A DNA stretch of 64,000 bases from Eubacteriales bacterium (GTDB taxonomy: Bacteria > Bacillota > Clostridia > Oscillospirales > CAG-382), in the NCBI GenBank assembly GCA_045657245.1, contig JAZOSQ010000053.1:3449-67448 (forward strand), in the 5' to 3' direction. Shown piece after piece: positions 26,888 through 48,150 of this stretch. Below the pieces are notes generated by a model. That model had not been told where the DNA came from and did not search any database. It was given only the letters and a program-made list of their open reading frames with translations. The stretch's first letter is position 1; the number at the start of each line of letters is the position of its first letter. A program made the position numbers and the translations under genes.

Positions 26888-28735
26888 ATGGTTAGAGAAG
26901 ATCTAAGAAATATCGCGATTATCGCACACGTTGACCACGGTAAGACAACGCTTGTTGACGAAATGCTCAAGCAAGGCGGTGTTTTTCGTGAAAATCAGGT
27001 TACAGAAGACCGCGTAATGGACAATAATGCGCTTGAGCGCGAAAGAGGAATCACTATTCTTGCAAAGAATACGGCGATTCATTATAAAGACGTTAAGATT
27101 AACGTTATCGATACTCCCGGTCACGCGGACTTTGGCGGTGAGGTTGAACGTATTCTTAAAATGGTTAACGGTGTTATACTTCTTGTTGACGCTGCTGAAG
27201 GTCCTATGCCTCAAACAAGATTCGTTCTTCAAAGAGCATTGGAGTTGAACCATAAAGTTATTGTTGTTGTTAATAAAATCGATAGAGCCGACGCAAGAAT
27301 CGAAGAAGTTATGGACGAGGTTCTCGAACTTCTCTTCGACCTTGATGCAAGTGATGAACAGCTTGAAAGTCCGACGCTTTTCTGTTCGGGCAGAGCCGGT
27401 ACCGCATCTATTTCGCCGTATGAACAGGGAAAAGACCTTCAACCCCTTTTTGATACTATACTTTCTCATATTCCTGCACCTGAAGGTAATCCCGAAGGGG
27501 AATTGCAGCTGCTCGTATCATCGATTGACTACAACGAATATGTTGGGCGTATTGGCATCGGAAGAATTGAACGTGGTCAGATAAAACAAGGTCAAGAAGT
27601 TTTGATGACCAATTATCACTCTCAATCCGAACCCAAGAAGACAAAAATCGTTTCGCTTTATCAAATTGACGGTCTTAACCGTGTTCCTGTACAGTCTGCA
27701 TCTGTTGGTGACATTGTTTGTTTTTCGGGTGCGGAAAACATCACTATCGGTGACACAATAACGTCGATGCAATGTCCTGAACCTCTCGAATTTGTTAAAG
27801 TAGGCGAACCTACAATGGAAATGACCTTCTCGGTTAACGATTCGCCTTTCGCGGGCAGAGAAGGTAAATTCGTTACGTCTCGTCAGCTTCGCGATCGACT
27901 CTTCAAAGAGCTTTTGAAAGACGTTTCGCTTCGTGTTACCGAAGGCGATACAACCGATTCTTTCAAGGTTGCCGGTAGAGGCGAAATGCACCTCTCTATA
28001 CTCATTGAAATTATGAGACGTGAGGGATTTGAGCTTTGCTGCTCGACACCGAGAGTCCTTTTCAAAGAAATCGACGGCGTTAAATGTGAACCTTTTGAGC
28101 TTGTTTCTGCGGACGTTCCCAACGATTACGTTGGTACGGTTGTTGAAGAATTGAGCAGAAGAAAAGGCGAACTCCTTCAGATGAATCCCAACGGCAACGG
28201 AACTCGTATGAAGATCGAATATTCGATTCCCGCTCGTTGTTTGCTTGGCTATCGTAGTATGTTTATGTCCGCGACGCGTGGTGAAGGTATTTTGAACAGC
28301 ATTTTTGAAGGGTATAAGCCCTTCAAAGGCGATATTCAAATACGCTTTACCGGTTCTCTTGTTGCAAGCGAAACTGGAGAAACAACATCGTACGGTTGCT
28401 ATAATTCGCAAGAACGAGGAAACCTTTTTGTTTCTCCTGCAATGGAAATTTATGAAGGTATGGTTGTCGGCATCAATCCGAAGGCGGAAGATATCGCAAT
28501 TAACCCCTGCAAAAAGAAGCAGCTCACGGCGATTCGTTCTGCAGGTGCTGACGAGAAGTTGATTTTGACTCCTCCGATAATTATGTCGCTTGAAGAAGCA
28601 ATCGAGTTTATTAACGAAGATGAATTGATTGAGGTTACTCCGAAATCAATAAGAATTCGTAAGCGTATTCTTAACAAAGAACTTCGTATGAAGGCAGAAA
28701 GCAAAGCTAAAAAAGCAGCGCTTTTGGGAAATTAA
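26888..28735 (+). CDS. typA: translational GTPase TypA/BipA
   Basis: NIAIIAHVDHGKTTLVD, DTPGHADFGGEV and NKID motifs, 615 aa. Confidence 0.95.
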   Translation: MVREDLRNIAIIAHVDHGKTTLVDEMLKQGGVFRENQVTEDRVMDNNALERERGITILAKNTAIHYKDVKINVIDTPGHADFGGEVERILKMVNGVILLVDAAEGPMPQTRFVLQRALELNHKVIVVVNKIDRADARIEEVMDEVLELLFDLDASDEQLESPTLFCSGRAGTASISPYEQGKDLQPLFDTILSHIPAPEGNPEGELQLLVSSIDYNEYVGRIGIGRIERGQIKQGQEVLMTNYHSQSEPKKTKIVSLYQIDGLNRVPVQSASVGDIVCFSGAENITIGDTITSMQCPEPLEFVKVGEPTMEMTFSVNDSPFAGREGKFVTSRQLRDRLFKELLKDVSLRVTEGDTTDSFKVAGRGEMHLSILIEIMRREGFELCCSTPRVLFKEIDGVKCEPFELVSADVPNDYVGTVVEELSRRKGELLQMNPNGNGTRMKIEYSIPARCLLGYRSMFMSATRGEGILNSIFEGYKPFKGDIQIRFTGSLVASETGETTSYGCYNSQERGNLFVSPAMEIYEGMVVGINPKAEDIAINPCKKKQLTAIRSAGADEKLILTPPIIMSLEEAIEFINEDELIEVTPKSIRIRKRILNKELRMKAESKAKKAALLGN

Positions 28736-28751
28736 CATACATTTATCAAAG

Positions 28752-28781
28752 AAACCGCTCAAAGAAACTTGAGCGGTTTTT
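28752..28781 (+). terminator. rho-independent terminator after typA
   Basis: Stem accgctc/gagcggt followed by TTTT. Confidence 0.7.
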
Positions 28782-28846
28782 ACGTACAAGGAAAATACAA
28801 GGGGTGGCTTGACAGTCCATTGACGATTATTTTTAGTTGTCGTAGA

Positions 28847-29362
28847 ATGATTTACTTAATTTCAGATATTTGTCGTGTCCTTGACATAAGTGAACGTGAA
28901 TTGATTACCGCTTCAACCGACACAGATTCAAGGAAGATTAAGCAGGAAGCACGGAATTTCCGTGTGATTCGCGGCACATGGTTTTGGGTTCCGACAATAT
29001 CATATGCACTAGCACTCTTAACTTGTTTTATTTGCAACCTTGCCGTAGACCACACGCTGTCATGGTTCTTCATTGTGCTAACTGCACTTCTTTGTGCCTT
29101 CTCATTTATCCCGACATTTACATCTTTTTTTAAGGCAAAGAAACTGCTCGTTTTTACAATAACAAGTTTTATTTCGATTTGTCTGCTTTTATACACTTGC
29201 GCGGCGTATACTAATACTATGTTTTGGTTTCCGACGGCATGCATCGGAACTTTAATTGGATCTCCATTGGTGTTTTTAGAATTCGCAAAAATAATAAACG
29301 ATGATTTATTATATAAAAAATGCTGTGTTGGAATTCAACACAGCATTTTTGCTCATATTTAA
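28847..29362 (+). CDS. hypothetical polytopic membrane protein, possibly the remnant of an HTH-membrane regulator
   Basis: ATG-initiated 171-aa ORF with 4-5 hydrophobic helices. The N-terminus (LISDICRVLDISERELI) looks like only the last helix of an XRE-type HTH. A terminator hairpin lies inside its last codons. Confidence 0.35.
   Translation: MIYLISDICRVLDISERELITASTDTDSRKIKQEARNFRVIRGTWFWVPTISYALALLTCFICNLAVDHTLSWFFIVLTALLCAFSFIPTFTSFFKAKKLLVFTITSFISICLLLYTCAAYTNTMFWFPTACIGTLIGSPLVFLEFAKIINDDLLYKKCCVGIQHSIFAHI
29321..29350 (+). terminator. rho-independent terminator lying inside the 3' end of the preceding ORF
   Basis: 10-bp stem tgctgtgttg/caacacagca, 5-nt loop, then TTTTT. The ORF's stop codon is 10 nt further downstream. 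Confidence 0.6.
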
Positions 29363-29391
29363 TCATCAATTTTCGAGGTAATTATATTTTG

Positions 29392-29420
29392 TTGATTTAT
29401 TGATTTTCATATGATATGAT
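29392..29420 (+). promoter_or_regulatory. candidate sigma-A promoter for the leader ORF and ABC exporter
   Basis: TTGATT, 17-nt spacer, TATGAT, about 30 nt upstream of the leader ATG. Confidence 0.5.
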
Positions 29421-29451
29421 ATAACTAATTAAAAGAAATGAGGTGTTAGAT

Positions 29452-29484
29452 ATGGCTATCATCAGAATTTGGACTTCCTTCTAA
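29452..29484 (+). CDS. candidate regulatory leader peptide MAIIRIWTSF (10 codons)
   Basis: The ATG lies 6 nt after a GAGGTG RBS. The stop codon is embedded in segment 1 of the downstream alternative-hairpin structure. Confidence 0.5.
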   Translation: MAIIRIWTSF

Positions 29485-29536
29485 ACGATAGAAGGAAAAT
29501 ATTTGAATCCTTCTATCGCTCAAAAGGCATAGGAGG
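29476..29536 (+). promoter_or_regulatory. four-segment translational attenuator that sequesters the ABC-exporter RBS
   Basis: Segment 1 (29476-29483) pairs with segment 2 (29489-29496), 8 bp. Segment 2 (29486-29496) pairs with segment 3 (29508-29518), 11 bp perfect. Segment 3 (29509-29516) pairs with segment 4 (29529-29536), 8 bp including one G-U, and segment 4 contains the AGGAGG Shine-Dalgarno of the ATG at 29542. Confidence 0.55.
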
Positions 29537-29541
29537 TTAAC

Positions 29542-31137
29542 ATGAAAAAATATCAAGAAAGCAATCGCCGCTATTTTGTAGGGGCGTTGGTTAGTATTCT
29601 CATCGGCACGATTTTTGCAGTTGTTCTCCAGTTCTTCAAGGGCGATGTTCTGGACTATGCGGCTGCAGGTGATGTTCAAAAGACGATTCGTTATGCAACT
29701 TTGCTCATTGGCTTTATCCTTTGTGAGTGTCTATTCTATTTTCTTTATGATCGATTCAGCGCTAAATTTGTGGTGGGTTGTACTAAAGAGTTGAAGCACG
29801 ATATTATTTCAAGCATTGTTGCTCGTAGCTATGTTGCGTACAAGGATCATCAGCAGGGCGAGTATATTGCGAAATATACAAATGAAGTTGACGCTATCAA
29901 GGATCGCCGCTTCAGCATGCTCCCAATGTTTTGGGAAATTATATTCAAAATCTTTTTTGTGAGTGTTGCGCTTTTCCTTCTTGATTGGCGCATTGCGATC
30001 ATTACCATTGCGTTGTTGACAACGCCACTTTATATTCCAAAGCTGATTGAGAAAAGGTTGCAGAATGCGCAAACCGCATACATCAAAGCAGTTGAGGACA
30101 ACTTAGCAAAGGTCAATGATTGGCTTTCGGGGTTTGAAATCGTTAAGAACTTTTCTATCGAACAGAAAATCATGGGCAGATTCAAAACTGTCAATGATAA
30201 CACGATGGAAAAACTTCTGAAGGACACCCAACTTGGAACTGTGTCCCGGCTAATAACAACATTGATTTCATATTTGTCATATTTCATTGTTCTGGTTTGT
30301 GCAACATGGCTTGTGCTGAAAGGTGATTTTTCTGCCGGTGATTTTTTCGTTGCCGTTGGCATGATAGATCAGCTTTCCTACCCTCTGATTTCGTTGGCCG
30401 GAATCACTCGCCAGCTCATTGCGATTAAGCCTGCTTGTACTGCGATGGAGGAATTCTTGAATGTTCAAGATGTTGCCCAGAAAACAGGCATCGTTAAAAA
30501 TCTGAGGCGTGATATTCGTTTTAATGATGTATCGTTTTCCTATGATGGTCAGCGTCATGTTCTGAATGGATTTGACTTGACGATTTGCAAAGGAAAAAGG
30601 TATTTGCTGAAAGGTCCCAGCGGATGTGGAAAGACAACTGCAATCAATTTGCTGCTGAAGTATTATGATGTGGCTGGTGGCAATATCGAAATTGACGGAA
30701 AATCTTTAGATCAGATCGGCAGTACTTACAGCCTTATGACAGTGGTGCGGCAGGAAGCAACCTTGTTCCACGACACATTGAGGAACAACCTTACGATGTA
30801 TCAAGAAGTTTCGGACATCGAACTGTTTGAAATTTTGAAAAGTGTTGGGCTTGGTAGATATGCTAACACACAAGCGTTGGACGGTATCATTACGGAAAGC
30901 GGTTCGAATTTCTCCGGCGGAGAGAAGAAACGCATCTGCCTTGCACGAGCATTATTGAGAGATACCGATGTTCTGATTCTTGATGAGCCACTGGCAAACT
31001 TGGATTTTGAAACAGCACAGAAGATTGAAGACCTGTTGTTGTCGATTAAAGATAGGACAATTTTGGTTGTATCTCATCAGTTTACTGAAGATAAATTGAT
31101 TTGTTTTGACCAAGTGATTGATTTATCAATAAACTAA
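29542..31137 (+). CDS. ABC transporter, fused permease/ATP-binding half-transporter (type I exporter)
   Basis: An N-terminal six-TM domain followed by an NBD with Walker A GPSGCGKTT, signature FSGGEKKR and Walker B VLILDEP. Confidence 0.85.
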   Translation: MKKYQESNRRYFVGALVSILIGTIFAVVLQFFKGDVLDYAAAGDVQKTIRYATLLIGFILCECLFYFLYDRFSAKFVVGCTKELKHDIISSIVARSYVAYKDHQQGEYIAKYTNEVDAIKDRRFSMLPMFWEIIFKIFFVSVALFLLDWRIAIITIALLTTPLYIPKLIEKRLQNAQTAYIKAVEDNLAKVNDWLSGFEIVKNFSIEQKIMGRFKTVNDNTMEKLLKDTQLGTVSRLITTLISYLSYFIVLVCATWLVLKGDFSAGDFFVAVGMIDQLSYPLISLAGITRQLIAIKPACTAMEEFLNVQDVAQKTGIVKNLRRDIRFNDVSFSYDGQRHVLNGFDLTICKGKRYLLKGPSGCGKTTAINLLLKYYDVAGGNIEIDGKSLDQIGSTYSLMTVVRQEATLFHDTLRNNLTMYQEVSDIELFEILKSVGLGRYANTQALDGIITESGSNFSGGEKKRICLARALLRDTDVLILDEPLANLDFETAQKIEDLLLSIKDRTILVVSHQFTEDKLICFDQVIDLSIN

Positions 31138-31141
31138 TAAA

Positions 31142-31178
31142 AAGAATGTCCTGGGAATACTCCTAGGACATTCTTTTG
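31142..31178. terminator. bidirectional terminator (ABC exporter / yihY-like)
   Basis: 11-bp stem aagaatgtcct/aggacattctt. Confidence 0.7.
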
Positions 31179-32101: not shown

Positions 32102-32608
32102 ATGGTACGTTATACCAGCAATTTCACAAAAAAAGAATTAACAGAACGTTGGGATGAATATACGTCTCCAGCAAGATTTGCGGGGGCGGACGAAACGCTT
32201 GATCTTATATTCTGTGCAAAACGTCGCGGCGATTCTGTCAAACTTATGAGAAGAACGAAGGTTTCGCGCGATCCGTTTTCGGCAATTTTTTATGGTATAA
32301 TTAAAAGCACCAAACAGGGAAGTGTGATTGTGGGTTTTTATGCAAAAGCAATTCTTGATTATCTTCTCGTAGGAATTGTATTGGGATTGCTGTTTTGTAT
32401 GCGTTCTTATATTATTGAACGAGGCGAATCGTTAAATACGATAAATTCACTTTTGATTGTTGCTATAATCGGCGGATTGATTCTTTTGAGAAATACACGA
32501 ACCGCAAAAAGAAAGTTTTCGGAACTGATTTTCAAGATAACAGATAGTGAATTGCCGTTATATTTGAACCGAAAAGCAACGAAAGAACTTGAAAATAAAG
32601 AAATATAA
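32102..32608 (+). CDS. hypothetical membrane protein
   Basis: 168-aa ORF with two central TM helices. A TTGACT-17-TATAAT promoter lies upstream. No family recognised. Confidence 0.45.
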   Translation: MVRYTSNFTKKELTERWDEYTSPARFAGADETLDLIFCAKRRGDSVKLMRRTKVSRDPFSAIFYGIIKSTKQGSVIVGFYAKAILDYLLVGIVLGLLFCMRSYIIERGESLNTINSLLIVAIIGGLILLRNTRTAKRKFSELIFKITDSELPLYLNRKATKELENKEI

Positions 32609-41443: not shown

Positions 41444-42142
41444 ATGAATTTTACCGGTATTACGAAGTTGGCTTTAACGGCCTCTGCTTCGGGATATGGC
41501 AGCCACTTGAACGAAAGTTCGTCCTTTGCTGAACGTGCAACGTTTGGTTTGGAAGTTGTGGCTATCGGCATGGCTGTGGTATTTGGCGTATTGTTGCTCT
41601 TGATCGGTATCCTTCAGATTTTCAAATTGTTCGGAGCTAAGCCCCAAAACAAAAAAGAATCTGAAGCATCCAAAGTTGCTTCGCCCGCTAACGCACCTGC
41701 ACCGACTGCTGTTTCGGCTTCTTCCGAAGAAGAAAAAATTGTTGCGATCGCAACTGCTGCTATTGCGGCATCTCGTGGAAAGAGTAACGTTGATTTCCAA
41801 GTGCTTTCGATTGCACCTATCAACGCTTGCGTATGCGCACAAAGCGCTGCTCCTGCTGCGGCTCCCGTAGCTCCTAAGGCTTCCGAGCCTGCACCCGCTC
41901 CCGCTCCTGCACCTGTTGTTGCCGGAGACGGCGAAAAGGTTAACGCTCCTCTCCCCGGAAATATTCTCGACGTTAAGGTTGCTTCCGGTGCTTCTGTTAA
42001 GAAGGGTGACATTCTCTGTATTCTTGAAGCGATGAAGATGGAAAACGAGATCGTTGCTCCTATTGACGGTACGATCGTTACCGCTGCTGCTACAAAGGGT
42101 TCTTCCGTTAACACCGGTGACCTTCTCTTTGTTATCGGCTGA
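41444..42142 (+). CDS. OadG-like gamma subunit fused to a biotinyl (biotin carboxyl carrier) domain
   Basis: An N-terminal single-TM OadG-type segment (GMAVVFGVLLLLIGILQIF), an Ala/Pro-rich linker, and a C-terminal biotinyl domain with EAMKMENE. Confidence 0.75.
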   Translation: MNFTGITKLALTASASGYGSHLNESSSFAERATFGLEVVAIGMAVVFGVLLLLIGILQIFKLFGAKPQNKKESEASKVASPANAPAPTAVSASSEEEKIVAIATAAIAASRGKSNVDFQVLSIAPINACVCAQSAAPAAAPVAPKASEPAPAPAPAPVVAGDGEKVNAPLPGNILDVKVASGASVKKGDILCILEAMKMENEIVAPIDGTIVTAAATKGSSVNTGDLLFVIG

Positions 42143-47882: not shown

Positions 47883-48150
47883 GACCATACAACCCATGTC
47901 GAACGCTGCTTCCGTCCGGAAACCGAAGGATTCTCTCGAAACAGGCACCCTTGCGGCACATCCGTATTTCTGTTTAATGCTGCTTGGTTCCCCACCTGAC
48001 ATATTTCACAGGTACGAATTGCGCAAGGACCCATCTCTCAACAAGACGCCTTCAGCGCAGCGACACAAACAAGGCCCTCAAAGGGTTTGTCATCCCCACT
48101 ATAGCGGATTGTGGGTACAAGGCACCGCTAACTCCCCGATTAGTATGGCC
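47883..48150 (-). ncRNA. ffs: signal recognition particle RNA, large Bacillus-type (with Alu domain)
   Basis: The minus strand reads ...CGGGGAGUUAGCGGUGCCUUGUACCCACAAUCCGCU... (Alu-domain-like) and ...GUCAGGUGGGGAACCAAGCAGC...GUGCCGCAAGGGUGCCUG (domain IV motifs). The 5' end GGCCAUAC pairs with the 3' end GUAUGGUC. Its position upstream of dnaX is conserved in Firmicutes. End coordinates are good to about 10 nt. Confidence 0.8.

Follow-up and report, generated by a model that had tools for sequence, protein, structure and literature searches.

Within a 64,000-nucleotide stretch of DNA from a Eubacteriales bacterium (GCA_045657245.1, contig JAZOSQ010000053.1; the whole stretch is here called the window), a gene encoding a 531-amino-acid ATP-binding cassette (ABC) exporter half-transporter (29542..31137, + strand) is preceded by a very short open reading frame (ORF) and by four segments that can pair with one another in mutually exclusive ways. 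The locus raises the question of whether a ribosome translating the short ORF decides if the exporter is made. A preliminary description of the DNA had proposed the logic of the ermC and cat attenuators, and that proposal is supported by a leader ORF conserved together with its Shine-Dalgarno (SD) sequence and a −10-like box, by covarying helices, by selection on the leader peptide, and by three-state folding of the RNA. We conclude, with a probability of roughly 0.78, that the leader is a translational attenuator of the ermC/ermD type, in which ribosome arrest on a leader peptide gates a stand-alone ABC exporter.

Anatomy and conservation of the leader

Sequence reading of positions 29200-29700 placed the leader ORF, which encodes MAIIRIWTSF in 10 codons plus a stop codon, at 29452..29484 (+ strand, as are all leader features below), with its SD sequence GAGGTG at 29440..29445, 6 nt before the leader ATG. 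Segment 1 (TCCTTCTA, 29476-83; extended form TTCCTTCTA, 29475..29483) consists of the last two sense codons of the leader and the first two bases of the stop codon and can pair with segment 2 or with segment 4. Segment 2 (CGATAGAAGGA, 29486-96; extended form CGATAGAAGGAA, 29486..29497) can pair with segment 1 over 9 bp or with segment 3 over 11 bp. Segment 3, the anti-SD segment (TCCTTCTATCG, 29508..29518), can pair with segment 2 or with segment 4, and segment 4 (ATAGGAGG, 29529..29536) carries the exporter SD sequence AGGAGG, which can be sequestered by segment 3 or by segment 1. An independent repeat search indicated a direct repeat of TCCTTCTA at 29476 and 29508, a perfect 9-bp inverted repeat between segments 1 and 2 (29475-83 and 29489-97), and a further inverted repeat between segments 2 and 3. 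The 10-codon leader, its GAGGTG ribosome binding site, and all four pairing segments of the preliminary description were thus found where it had placed them.

A promoter-like region was read at 29392..29425 (+), with a −35 element TTGATT at 29392-97 and an extended −10 element TGaTATGAT at 29412-20, the TATGAT of which (29415-20) follows at the 17-nt spacing reported earlier; TGaTATAAC at 29417-25 is an alternative −10 element. Within the window the match does not exceed chance (10 matches versus 7.7 +/- 2.8 in shuffled sequence), and it gains weight only because the position is conserved at other loci. There, a TATAAT-like hexamer was present in 42 of 51 distinct related loci and began 27-41 nt upstream of the leader start in 38 of these, and an SD-like pentamer was present at −18..−4 of the leader start in 50 of the 51. 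The conserved leader SD sequence and −10-like box support a predicted transcription start upstream of the leader. From 29351 to 31139, the only terminator-like sites called were two short hairpins within the coding region, and none was called between 29392 and 29544. As already noted in the preliminary description, segment 3 is not followed by a U-tract, and neither is segment 4. Transcriptional attenuation was rejected for a leader with neither U-tract nor terminator call, and the lack of an intrinsic terminator indicates that control would instead be translational.

Related loci were taken from a genome collection, from a metagenome scan with an exporter alignment restricted to the transmembrane domain (TMD), and from eleven exact-protein look-ups. 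The same leader ORF and four segments were found directly upstream of orthologous exporters (48-93% identical) in about 70 independent loci, which together contain 44 distinct leader ORF sequences. At least four orthologues from the genome collection, among the matches listed, carried the four segments together with a mini-ORF whose end lies in segment 1; these came from metagenome-assembled genomes (MAGs) of Christensenellaceae, Lachnospiraceae, Tissierella, and Clostridiaceae and encoded exporters of 48-68% identity. Conservation of the upstream ORF at homologous exporter loci, which had been put forward as a check on the proposal, was thus observed and extended to the SD sequence of the ORF. 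A covariance model, R1, was built on A3, an alignment of 34 distinct leaders. Each of 64 related loci contained a single R1 match (48-113 bits, E 1e-9 to 1e-26), which in every case directly preceded the orthologous exporter. Distant ABC homologues fetched in that scan gave no match, and the window did not contain a second one. A weak antisense R1 match in the window (29468-29561, − strand, 22 bits) is due to the near-palindromic repeats and does not represent a second element.

The helices are conserved as pairings. Among A3 cells, 98.5% were paired for 1:2+3:4 and 98.9% for 1:4+2:3, and sliding the partners by 1-3 columns lowered the figure to 45-62%. The second base of the leader stop codon (TAA/TGA) covaried with segments 2 (T/C), 3 (A/G), and 4 (T/C), and compensatory changes were found from G-C to A-U at columns 55/93 in two sequences and from C-G to U-A at columns 45/62 in locus L005. 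The near-complete pairing with covariation agrees with the compensatory changes that the preliminary description had asked of the 1:2, 2:3, and 3:4 helices. Outside the helices, variation is free in the 2:3 loop and in the spacer from segment 3 to segment 4, and insertions of up to about 100 nt are tolerated. In three loci (L110, 168-376; L131, 877-1013; L001, 2872-3006), about 25-100 nt are inserted between segment 3 and the SD sequence, and some of these insertions are GC-rich and form their own hairpins; all four segments are intact, and the spacer is therefore evidently unconstrained. In L151 (about 530-545), to which the window is most closely related (93%), a G-to-T change in segment 2 (TAGAATGA) breaks a G-C pair of both 1:2 and 2:3; a polymorphism, an error of sequencing, or an allele with leaky control could each account for it.

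Taken by itself, the window could be read as chance repeats next to a spurious mini-ORF, without function, in an AT-rich intergenic region. Its fold has a minimum free energy (MFE) of −28.2 kcal/mol with a z-score of −2.4 (2 of 200 shuffled sequences were equally good), its promoter-like matches are not enriched over shuffles, and searches of Rfam (by E-value over 28700-30000 and at the gathering threshold over the whole window) found no family for the leader and returned only noise, such as miRNA models. The comparative data refute this explanation, as about 70 loci with 44 distinct leader ORFs, covarying helices, and R1 scores of up to 113 bits leave it a negligible probability.

Two classes of leader peptide

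Most leaders in the family have eight codons. The eight-codon set, here called class A (n = 41), comprises 40 of the 44 distinct leaders collected by regular expression plus a repeat entry of one ORF redundant there, and the family consensus is M-V-[K/R]-[Y/L/R]-R-x-S-F-stop. Translation would begin at ATG in 38 leaders, GTG in 2, and TTG in 1. Codon 2 is Val in 40 of 41, with GTT, GTC, GTA, and GTG all in use; codon 3 is Lys in 30 and Arg in 11, and thus Lys or Arg in all 41, encoded by AAA, AAG, AGA, AGG, or CGG. Codon 4 is Leu (13), Tyr (13), or Arg (15), with several codons in use, and codon 5 is Arg in 40 leaders and Trp in one, with all six Arg codons represented and AGY never. Codon 6 is free, with 11 different amino acids, and codons 7-9 ([S/T/A]-F-stop) are essentially fixed by pairing as NC[C/T] TTC T[A/G][A/G]. 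Together, codons 3-5 read KRR (14), KYR (11), RLR (9), KLR (4), RYR (1), RRR (1), or KYW (1). Because residues are held constant through synonymous codons beside a codon that is free, we conclude that selection acts on the peptide, that the ORF is translated, and that its sequence matters.

The conserved residues form a +X+ motif (Arg or Lys, any residue, Arg or Lys), present as K/R3-x4-R5 in 40 of the 41 eight-codon leaders. The +X+ motif is the commonest arrest motif for macrolides and ketolides and is the sensor in ErmDL. With the drug bound, the ribosome halts when X occupies the P site and fails to accept an incoming Arg or Lys at the A site; even the tetrapeptide MRLR is enough for the motif to work (PMC12583479, PMC8298421). 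The leader peptide had initially been considered unrecognizable, which holds for the window variant but not for the family, as the consensus MV[K/R]x[R] is a motif of the +X+ macrolide-arrest type. Its presence in most leaders makes macrolides or ketolides bound in the exit tunnel the most likely inducers, and for class A we would give them a little better than an even chance. The near-invariant Val2 (40 of 41) and the limitation of X to Tyr, Leu, or Arg are both left unexplained by the published +X+ rule. The cat-86 leader likewise starts with MVK (MVKTDKISS). The peptides MVRLR, MVKLR, MVKYR, and MVKRR were not found in the sense of leader peptides in the literature searched.

The same residues could alternatively report amino acid supply, as leader peptides of biosynthetic operons classically do, if scarcity of charged Arg-tRNA (or Lys-tRNA) paused the ribosome with Arg5 in the A site, in the geometry of a +X+ arrest, and so turned the transporter on. 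Arg5 is almost invariant, 15 of the 41 leaders read KRR or RRR at codons 3-5, and such a pause would lie within the stretch of ribosome positions predicted below to be productive. Known starvation leaders, however, contain runs of regulatory codons, whereas a single Arg codon is obligatory here; 26 of the 41 leaders have Tyr or Leu at codon 4, and the window type of leader has one Arg and a Trp. Moreover, the regulated gene has the architecture of an exporter, lacks a binding-protein partner, and is found in unrelated contexts. We consider a supply sensor very unlikely.

The leader in the window, MAIIRIWTSF, has 10 codons and represents a second class, class B, that recurs at four other places. 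Loci L081 and L151 (93% exporter identity) contain the same leader ORF as the window, L138-140 (75% exporter identity) encode an identical peptide although four codons differ synonymously and the stop is TGA instead of TAA, and L147 (78% exporter identity) encodes MAIIRIWSSF, with the one substitution T8S. To judge from these sequences, the class B leader is likewise under peptide-level selection. When leaders were aligned from the stop codon, R5-I6-W7 of the window occupied the positions of K/R3-x4-R5 in class A, and one class A leader (L087) has K-Y-W there. In ErmDL, changing the A-site Arg to Trp relieves telithromycin arrest (PMC8298421), a result on which +xW was rejected as a known macrolide motif. 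Macrolides are thus a doubtful inducer for the class B leader of the window. In a rough neighbor-joining tree of the exporters, class B leaders lay on three separate branches among class A neighbors, and the nearest relative (L145, 86%) carries the leader MAKRRNSF; the scatter suggests repeated leader switching or leader exchange, on a tree that is itself rough and not robust.

An orthologue from echidna gut (L132) combines an MVKLR-type leader (MVKLRTSDIR*) with a different RNA (about 2405-2500). Its GATAGGAGG / CCTCCTATC hairpin overlaps the leader stop codon, and the exporter start is a TTG after GGGGGA; the tblastn match is fragmentary. Possible readings are a variant with three segments or with inverted logic, or else a copy in decay.

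RNA folding and ribosome position

In the window, helix energies were −9.6 kcal/mol for 1:2, −15.2 kcal/mol for 2:3, and −6.8 kcal/mol for 3:4, with −16.4 kcal/mol for 1:2 and 3:4 combined. The unconstrained MFE structure was a nested fold, 1:4+2:3, in which segment 1 is paired to the SD region and the 11-bp 2:3 helix lies inside. Thus, the 1:2, 2:3, and 3:4 pairings proposed initially were borne out, but the 1:4 pairing, which belongs to the MFE structure of the window, had been missed. Segments 1 and 3 are alike, as are segments 2 and 4; the RNA therefore has two alternative closed states, and the SD sequence of the window is paired in both (probability of being unpaired, 0.01). Among the 34 A3 sequences, the MFE ground state was 1:2+3:4 in 16 and nested 1:4+2:3 in 9 by a strict test, and several of the other 9, the window included, showed the nested fold in a shifted register. 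The SD sequence of the free mRNA was closed in nearly all 34, with a few sequences at 0.2-0.46 unpaired (e.g., L105).

The ribosome was modeled by blocking bases +1 to +15 from the first base of the P-site codon and refolding the RNA. For the window, the probability that the SD sequence is unpaired was 0.01 or less with the P site at codon 4 or earlier, 0.54 at codons 5 to 7, 0.30 at codon 8, where the blocked stretch touches segment 2, and 0.00 at codon 9 or with a terminating ribosome. In this model, the SD sequence opens at P-site codons 5-8, which include I6, consistent with the earlier proposal that a pause around codons 5-7 (R-I-W) would expose the ribosome binding site and that a ribosome at the leader stop codon would leave it closed. 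The 33 eight-codon leaders in A3 gave the same three states on average: 0.06 in the free mRNA and 0.03 and 0.06 with the P site at codons 1 and 2; 0.51, 0.59, and 0.58 at codons 3, 4, and 5; and 0.19 at codon 6, followed by 0.03 at both codon 7 and codon 8, the latter representing the terminating ribosome. Arrest at +X+ places codon 4 in the P site and Arg5 in the A site and would therefore fall at the center of the three-codon productive stretch. The spacing from the Arg5 codon (W7 in the window) to segment 1 is one codon in all leaders.

We propose the following sequence of events. The mRNA would start about 20 nt upstream of the mini-ORF, and as long as it is free, the exporter SD sequence would always be paired, either by segment 3 (with 1:2) or by segment 1 (with 2:3 nested inside). 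A ribosome that runs to the stop codon inside segment 1 would cover segment 2 also, leaving segment 3 to hold the SD sequence closed. Arrest in the middle of the leader would instead mask segment 1 and spare segment 2, such that the 11-bp 2:3 helix forms, segment 4 is left without a partner, and the exporter is translated. Productive positions would be P-site codons 3-5 in the eight-codon leaders and 5-8 in the 10-codon leader of the window, and in most of the family the arrest signal would be the +X+ motif, K/R-x-R at codons 3-5. The exporter would most likely be an inducible drug efflux pump.

The only serious rival to arrest-based attenuation is a generic sensor of translation stress, in which anything that slows elongation, such as chloramphenicol, tetracyclines, fusidic acid, lincosamides, or starvation, leaves a larger fraction of ribosomes on the productive codons and so induces a multidrug exporter without any specific arrest. 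Nonspecific slowing would indeed induce somewhat, as 3 of 8 codons are productive; the class B leader of the window lacks a canonical +X+ motif, and antibiotics of several ribosome-targeting classes induce bmrCD (PMC4191407). Nevertheless, a generic sensor has no need of Val2, K/R3, and Arg5 kept via synonymous codons in 40 of 41 leaders, nor of an identical MAIIRIW across exporters that are merely 75% identical, and inhibitors that trap the ribosome at the start codon leave the SD sequence closed (0.03-0.06 at P-site codons 1-2). We therefore regard a generic sensor as unlikely.

The nested fold raises a different alternative, namely, that segment 1 masks the SD sequence (1:4+2:3) and that plain translation of the leader unmasks it transiently, with no stall and no inducer, such that exporter output would follow how much the leader is translated and how fast the mRNA folds. 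The nested fold is the MFE structure of the window and of about half the family, and whenever a ribosome moves across segment 1 in this fold, segment 4 is released. A ribosome at the stop codon, however, unwinds segment 2 and allows 3:4 to close (0.03), and the open time would thus be very short. Stall-independent coupling also leaves unexplained both the selection on the amino acid sequence of the leader and the fixed one-codon spacing between Arg5 (W7) and segment 1, and it is, like the supply sensor, very improbable.

Several observations weigh against the proposed attenuator. Some orthologues lack a leader or attenuator (L111-L113, L108, and L128/L129; 65-69% identical), and a modeled stall scarcely opens the SD sequence in L005 (0.02), L109 (0.00), and L114 (0.14). 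Covariation is confined to a few variable columns in segments that are otherwise nearly invariant, and owing to the likeness of segment 1 to segment 3 and of segment 2 to segment 4, it does not tell 1:2+3:4 and 1:4+2:3 apart. In the window itself, R-I-W departs from the canonical +X+ motif and, on the ErmDL comparison, may not be macrolide responsive. Finally, the exporter matched no known resistance family in NCBIfam (e.g., Tet(46), SmdAB, or MsbA), and there were no close relatives on plasmids, where the leader DNA had no match and exporter relatives were 30% identical or less.

In the leaderless loci L111-L113, the upstream region is AT-rich and has a TTGACA-type promoter instead of the leader. 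No divergent drug-sensing regulator was found beside the leaderless exporters of L111 and L108.

Related attenuators, the exporter, and its genomic context

The leader shares with the ermC and ermD attenuators (ErmCL and ErmDL) a short ORF with its own SD sequence, mutually exclusive 1:2/3:4 and 2:3 pairings, a segment 4 that is the SD sequence of the regulated gene, a segment 1 that an arrested ribosome would mask, thereby opening the SD sequence, and the absence of a terminator. The family leader also shares the +X+ arrest motif with ErmDL (MTHSMRLR...) (PMC12583479, PMC8298421, PMC5418344), whereas the window variant has R-I-W instead. It differs in that the regulated gene encodes a type-IV-fold ABC exporter rather than an rRNA methylase, in that the leader has just 8 codons (10 in the window) with its stop codon inside segment 1, and in that segments 1/3 and 2/4 are near-identical repeats that create a second closed state, 1:4 around 2:3. 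Furthermore, the family has no sequence similarity to the erm leaders and no Rfam family.

Control of an exporter had been presented as unusual, which was overstated, as the ABC exporter bmrCD is controlled by ribosome-mediated transcriptional attenuation (PMC4191407) and the major facilitator superfamily (MFS) exporters cmlA and fexA by translational attenuation (PMC5418344). Like the locus described here, bmrB-bmrCD of Bacillus subtilis (Reilman et al. 2014, PMC4191407) combines a membrane ABC exporter with an upstream small ORF that carries alternative stem-loops; expression of the multidrug exporter BmrCD depends on translation of that ORF and responds to ribosome-targeting antibiotics, as is proposed here. 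Control of bmrCD is transcriptional, by an intrinsic terminator inside bmrB, whereas the leader here is terminator free, and BmrCD is a two-gene heterodimer, whereas here a single half-transporter gene is followed by a terminator. The window locus thus has neither the terminator within the leader ORF nor the two-gene exporter of the BmrB/BmrCD type, and the similarity of its exporter to BmrD (YheH, 8t1p_D) is generic (E 3e-43). At 8-10 codons, the leader is also much shorter than BmrB, which has 54 amino acids.

The cmlA, fexA, and cat systems likewise have short leaders (about 9 codons) and an SD-sequestering hairpin that is opened by a drug-stalled ribosome, and cmlA and fexA, as proposed here, control efflux pumps (PMC5418344). 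Those pumps belong to the MFS and are induced by chloramphenicol or florfenicol; the hairpin there has two segments, in contrast to the four-segment relay here, and the leaders are unrelated. The mef leader has the sequence MTASMRLR. The mef(E)/mel and msrD (MsrDL) systems also have macrolide-sensing leaders in front of efflux or protection genes, that of mef being of the +X+ type, but they are reportedly governed by transcriptional attenuation (PMC4335068, PMC10314930) and encode an MFS pump and ABC-F ribosome-protection proteins rather than a membrane ABC exporter. No description of the leader-exporter family was found in the literature searched, an absence that is no proof of novelty. We conclude that an apparently undescribed attenuator family of the erm/cat class acting on a new class of regulated gene is well supported.

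If the proposed mechanism is correct, a membrane ABC exporter family would join the short list of genes controlled by drug-sensing leaders, and MV[K/R]x[R]xSF would be among the shortest natural macrolide sensors. The exporter family is abundant in Clostridia of the human gut, the rumen, and digesters and is invisible to current resistance-gene models. The leader would serve as a built-in label of what the cell defends against, and the exporter is on that account a specific candidate for macrolide/ketolide efflux of the inducible kind among commensals, themselves a reservoir of the resistome. Tentatively, the exporter family may be a widespread, unannotated drug-inducible efflux determinant of gut and rumen Clostridia, with the attenuator a platform for two exchanged sensor peptides: the minimal +X+ peptide MV[K/R]x[R]xSF, and MAIIRIW[T/S]SF as a new arrest peptide for a different ligand, such as another antibiotic class or a gut natural product. 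The family is also useful for work on ribosome arrest by very short nascent chains and drugs bound in the tunnel: its minimal +X+ leaders form a natural set (KRR, KYR, RLR, and KLR after an invariant Met-Val), and a second leader, unrelated to them, is built on the same RNA platform. With its two closed states, the four-segment design would be a compact, fail-safe variant of the ermC switch.

The exporter has an N-terminal ABC_membrane domain (PF00664, 1.1e-30) and a C-terminal ABC_tran domain (PF00005, 9.8e-26), and Walker A, Q404 of the Q-loop, the SGGE signature, D481-E482 of Walker B, and H512 of the H-loop are invariant in the exporter alignment. It thus has the composition of an ABCB/MsbA-like half-transporter, a six-helix ABC_membrane domain fused to a catalytically complete nucleotide-binding domain. 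Against the named NCBIfam families it fell below every cutoff (best, MsbA at 210 bits versus 602; Tet(46)A at 113 versus 1250), and its best relatives in the PDB were the halves of ABCB1 and other generic exporters. Metagenomes contained at least 120 representatives of exporter clusters at 67-93% identity, those with a name being MAGs of Clostridia or Oscillospiraceae. A 67%-identical exporter fragment on the 1174-bp contig JAZLAZ010000015.1 (L004) was assigned to a 'Candidatus Enterousia' bin; every other carrier with a name belongs to the Clostridia, and the assignment is probably a binning artifact.

Intrinsic-terminator-like hairpins flank the unit on both sides, one at the end of the upstream gene (29316..29350, +; 16-bp stem followed by a T run), which marks the 5′ boundary, and one directly after the exporter (31140..31177, +; 17-bp stem), indicating that the unit is monocistronic. 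Neighboring genes vary by locus: typA and yihY in the window, and elsewhere an rluD-like gene and secG, oxaloacetate decarboxylase and PFOR, a LysR regulator, or a MATE pump. The variable context indicates that the exporter is a stand-alone accessory gene, a setting that is compatible with a resistance-type function and carries no evidence of substrate. In L141-L143 (exporter P0026, 74% identical), the leader and exporter lie amid an IS66 transposase, integrases, and a resolvase, which suggests that the cassette can be mobile; at other loci, its neighbors are housekeeping genes.

In the window, the unit is flanked by ORFs of 197 amino acids (28769-29362, +) and 168 amino acids (32102-32608, +), which are predicted membrane proteins with no match in Pfam or NCBIfam. 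A search for other mini-ORFs with a +X+ motif in the window gave five matches, none of which was taken as real; those at 41840 and 44231 are antisense to overlapping long ORFs. No tRNA genes were found in the 64-kb window, and its sole Rfam match at the gathering level was the bacterial large signal recognition particle RNA (RF01854) at 47885-48148 (− strand), with 170.7 bits.

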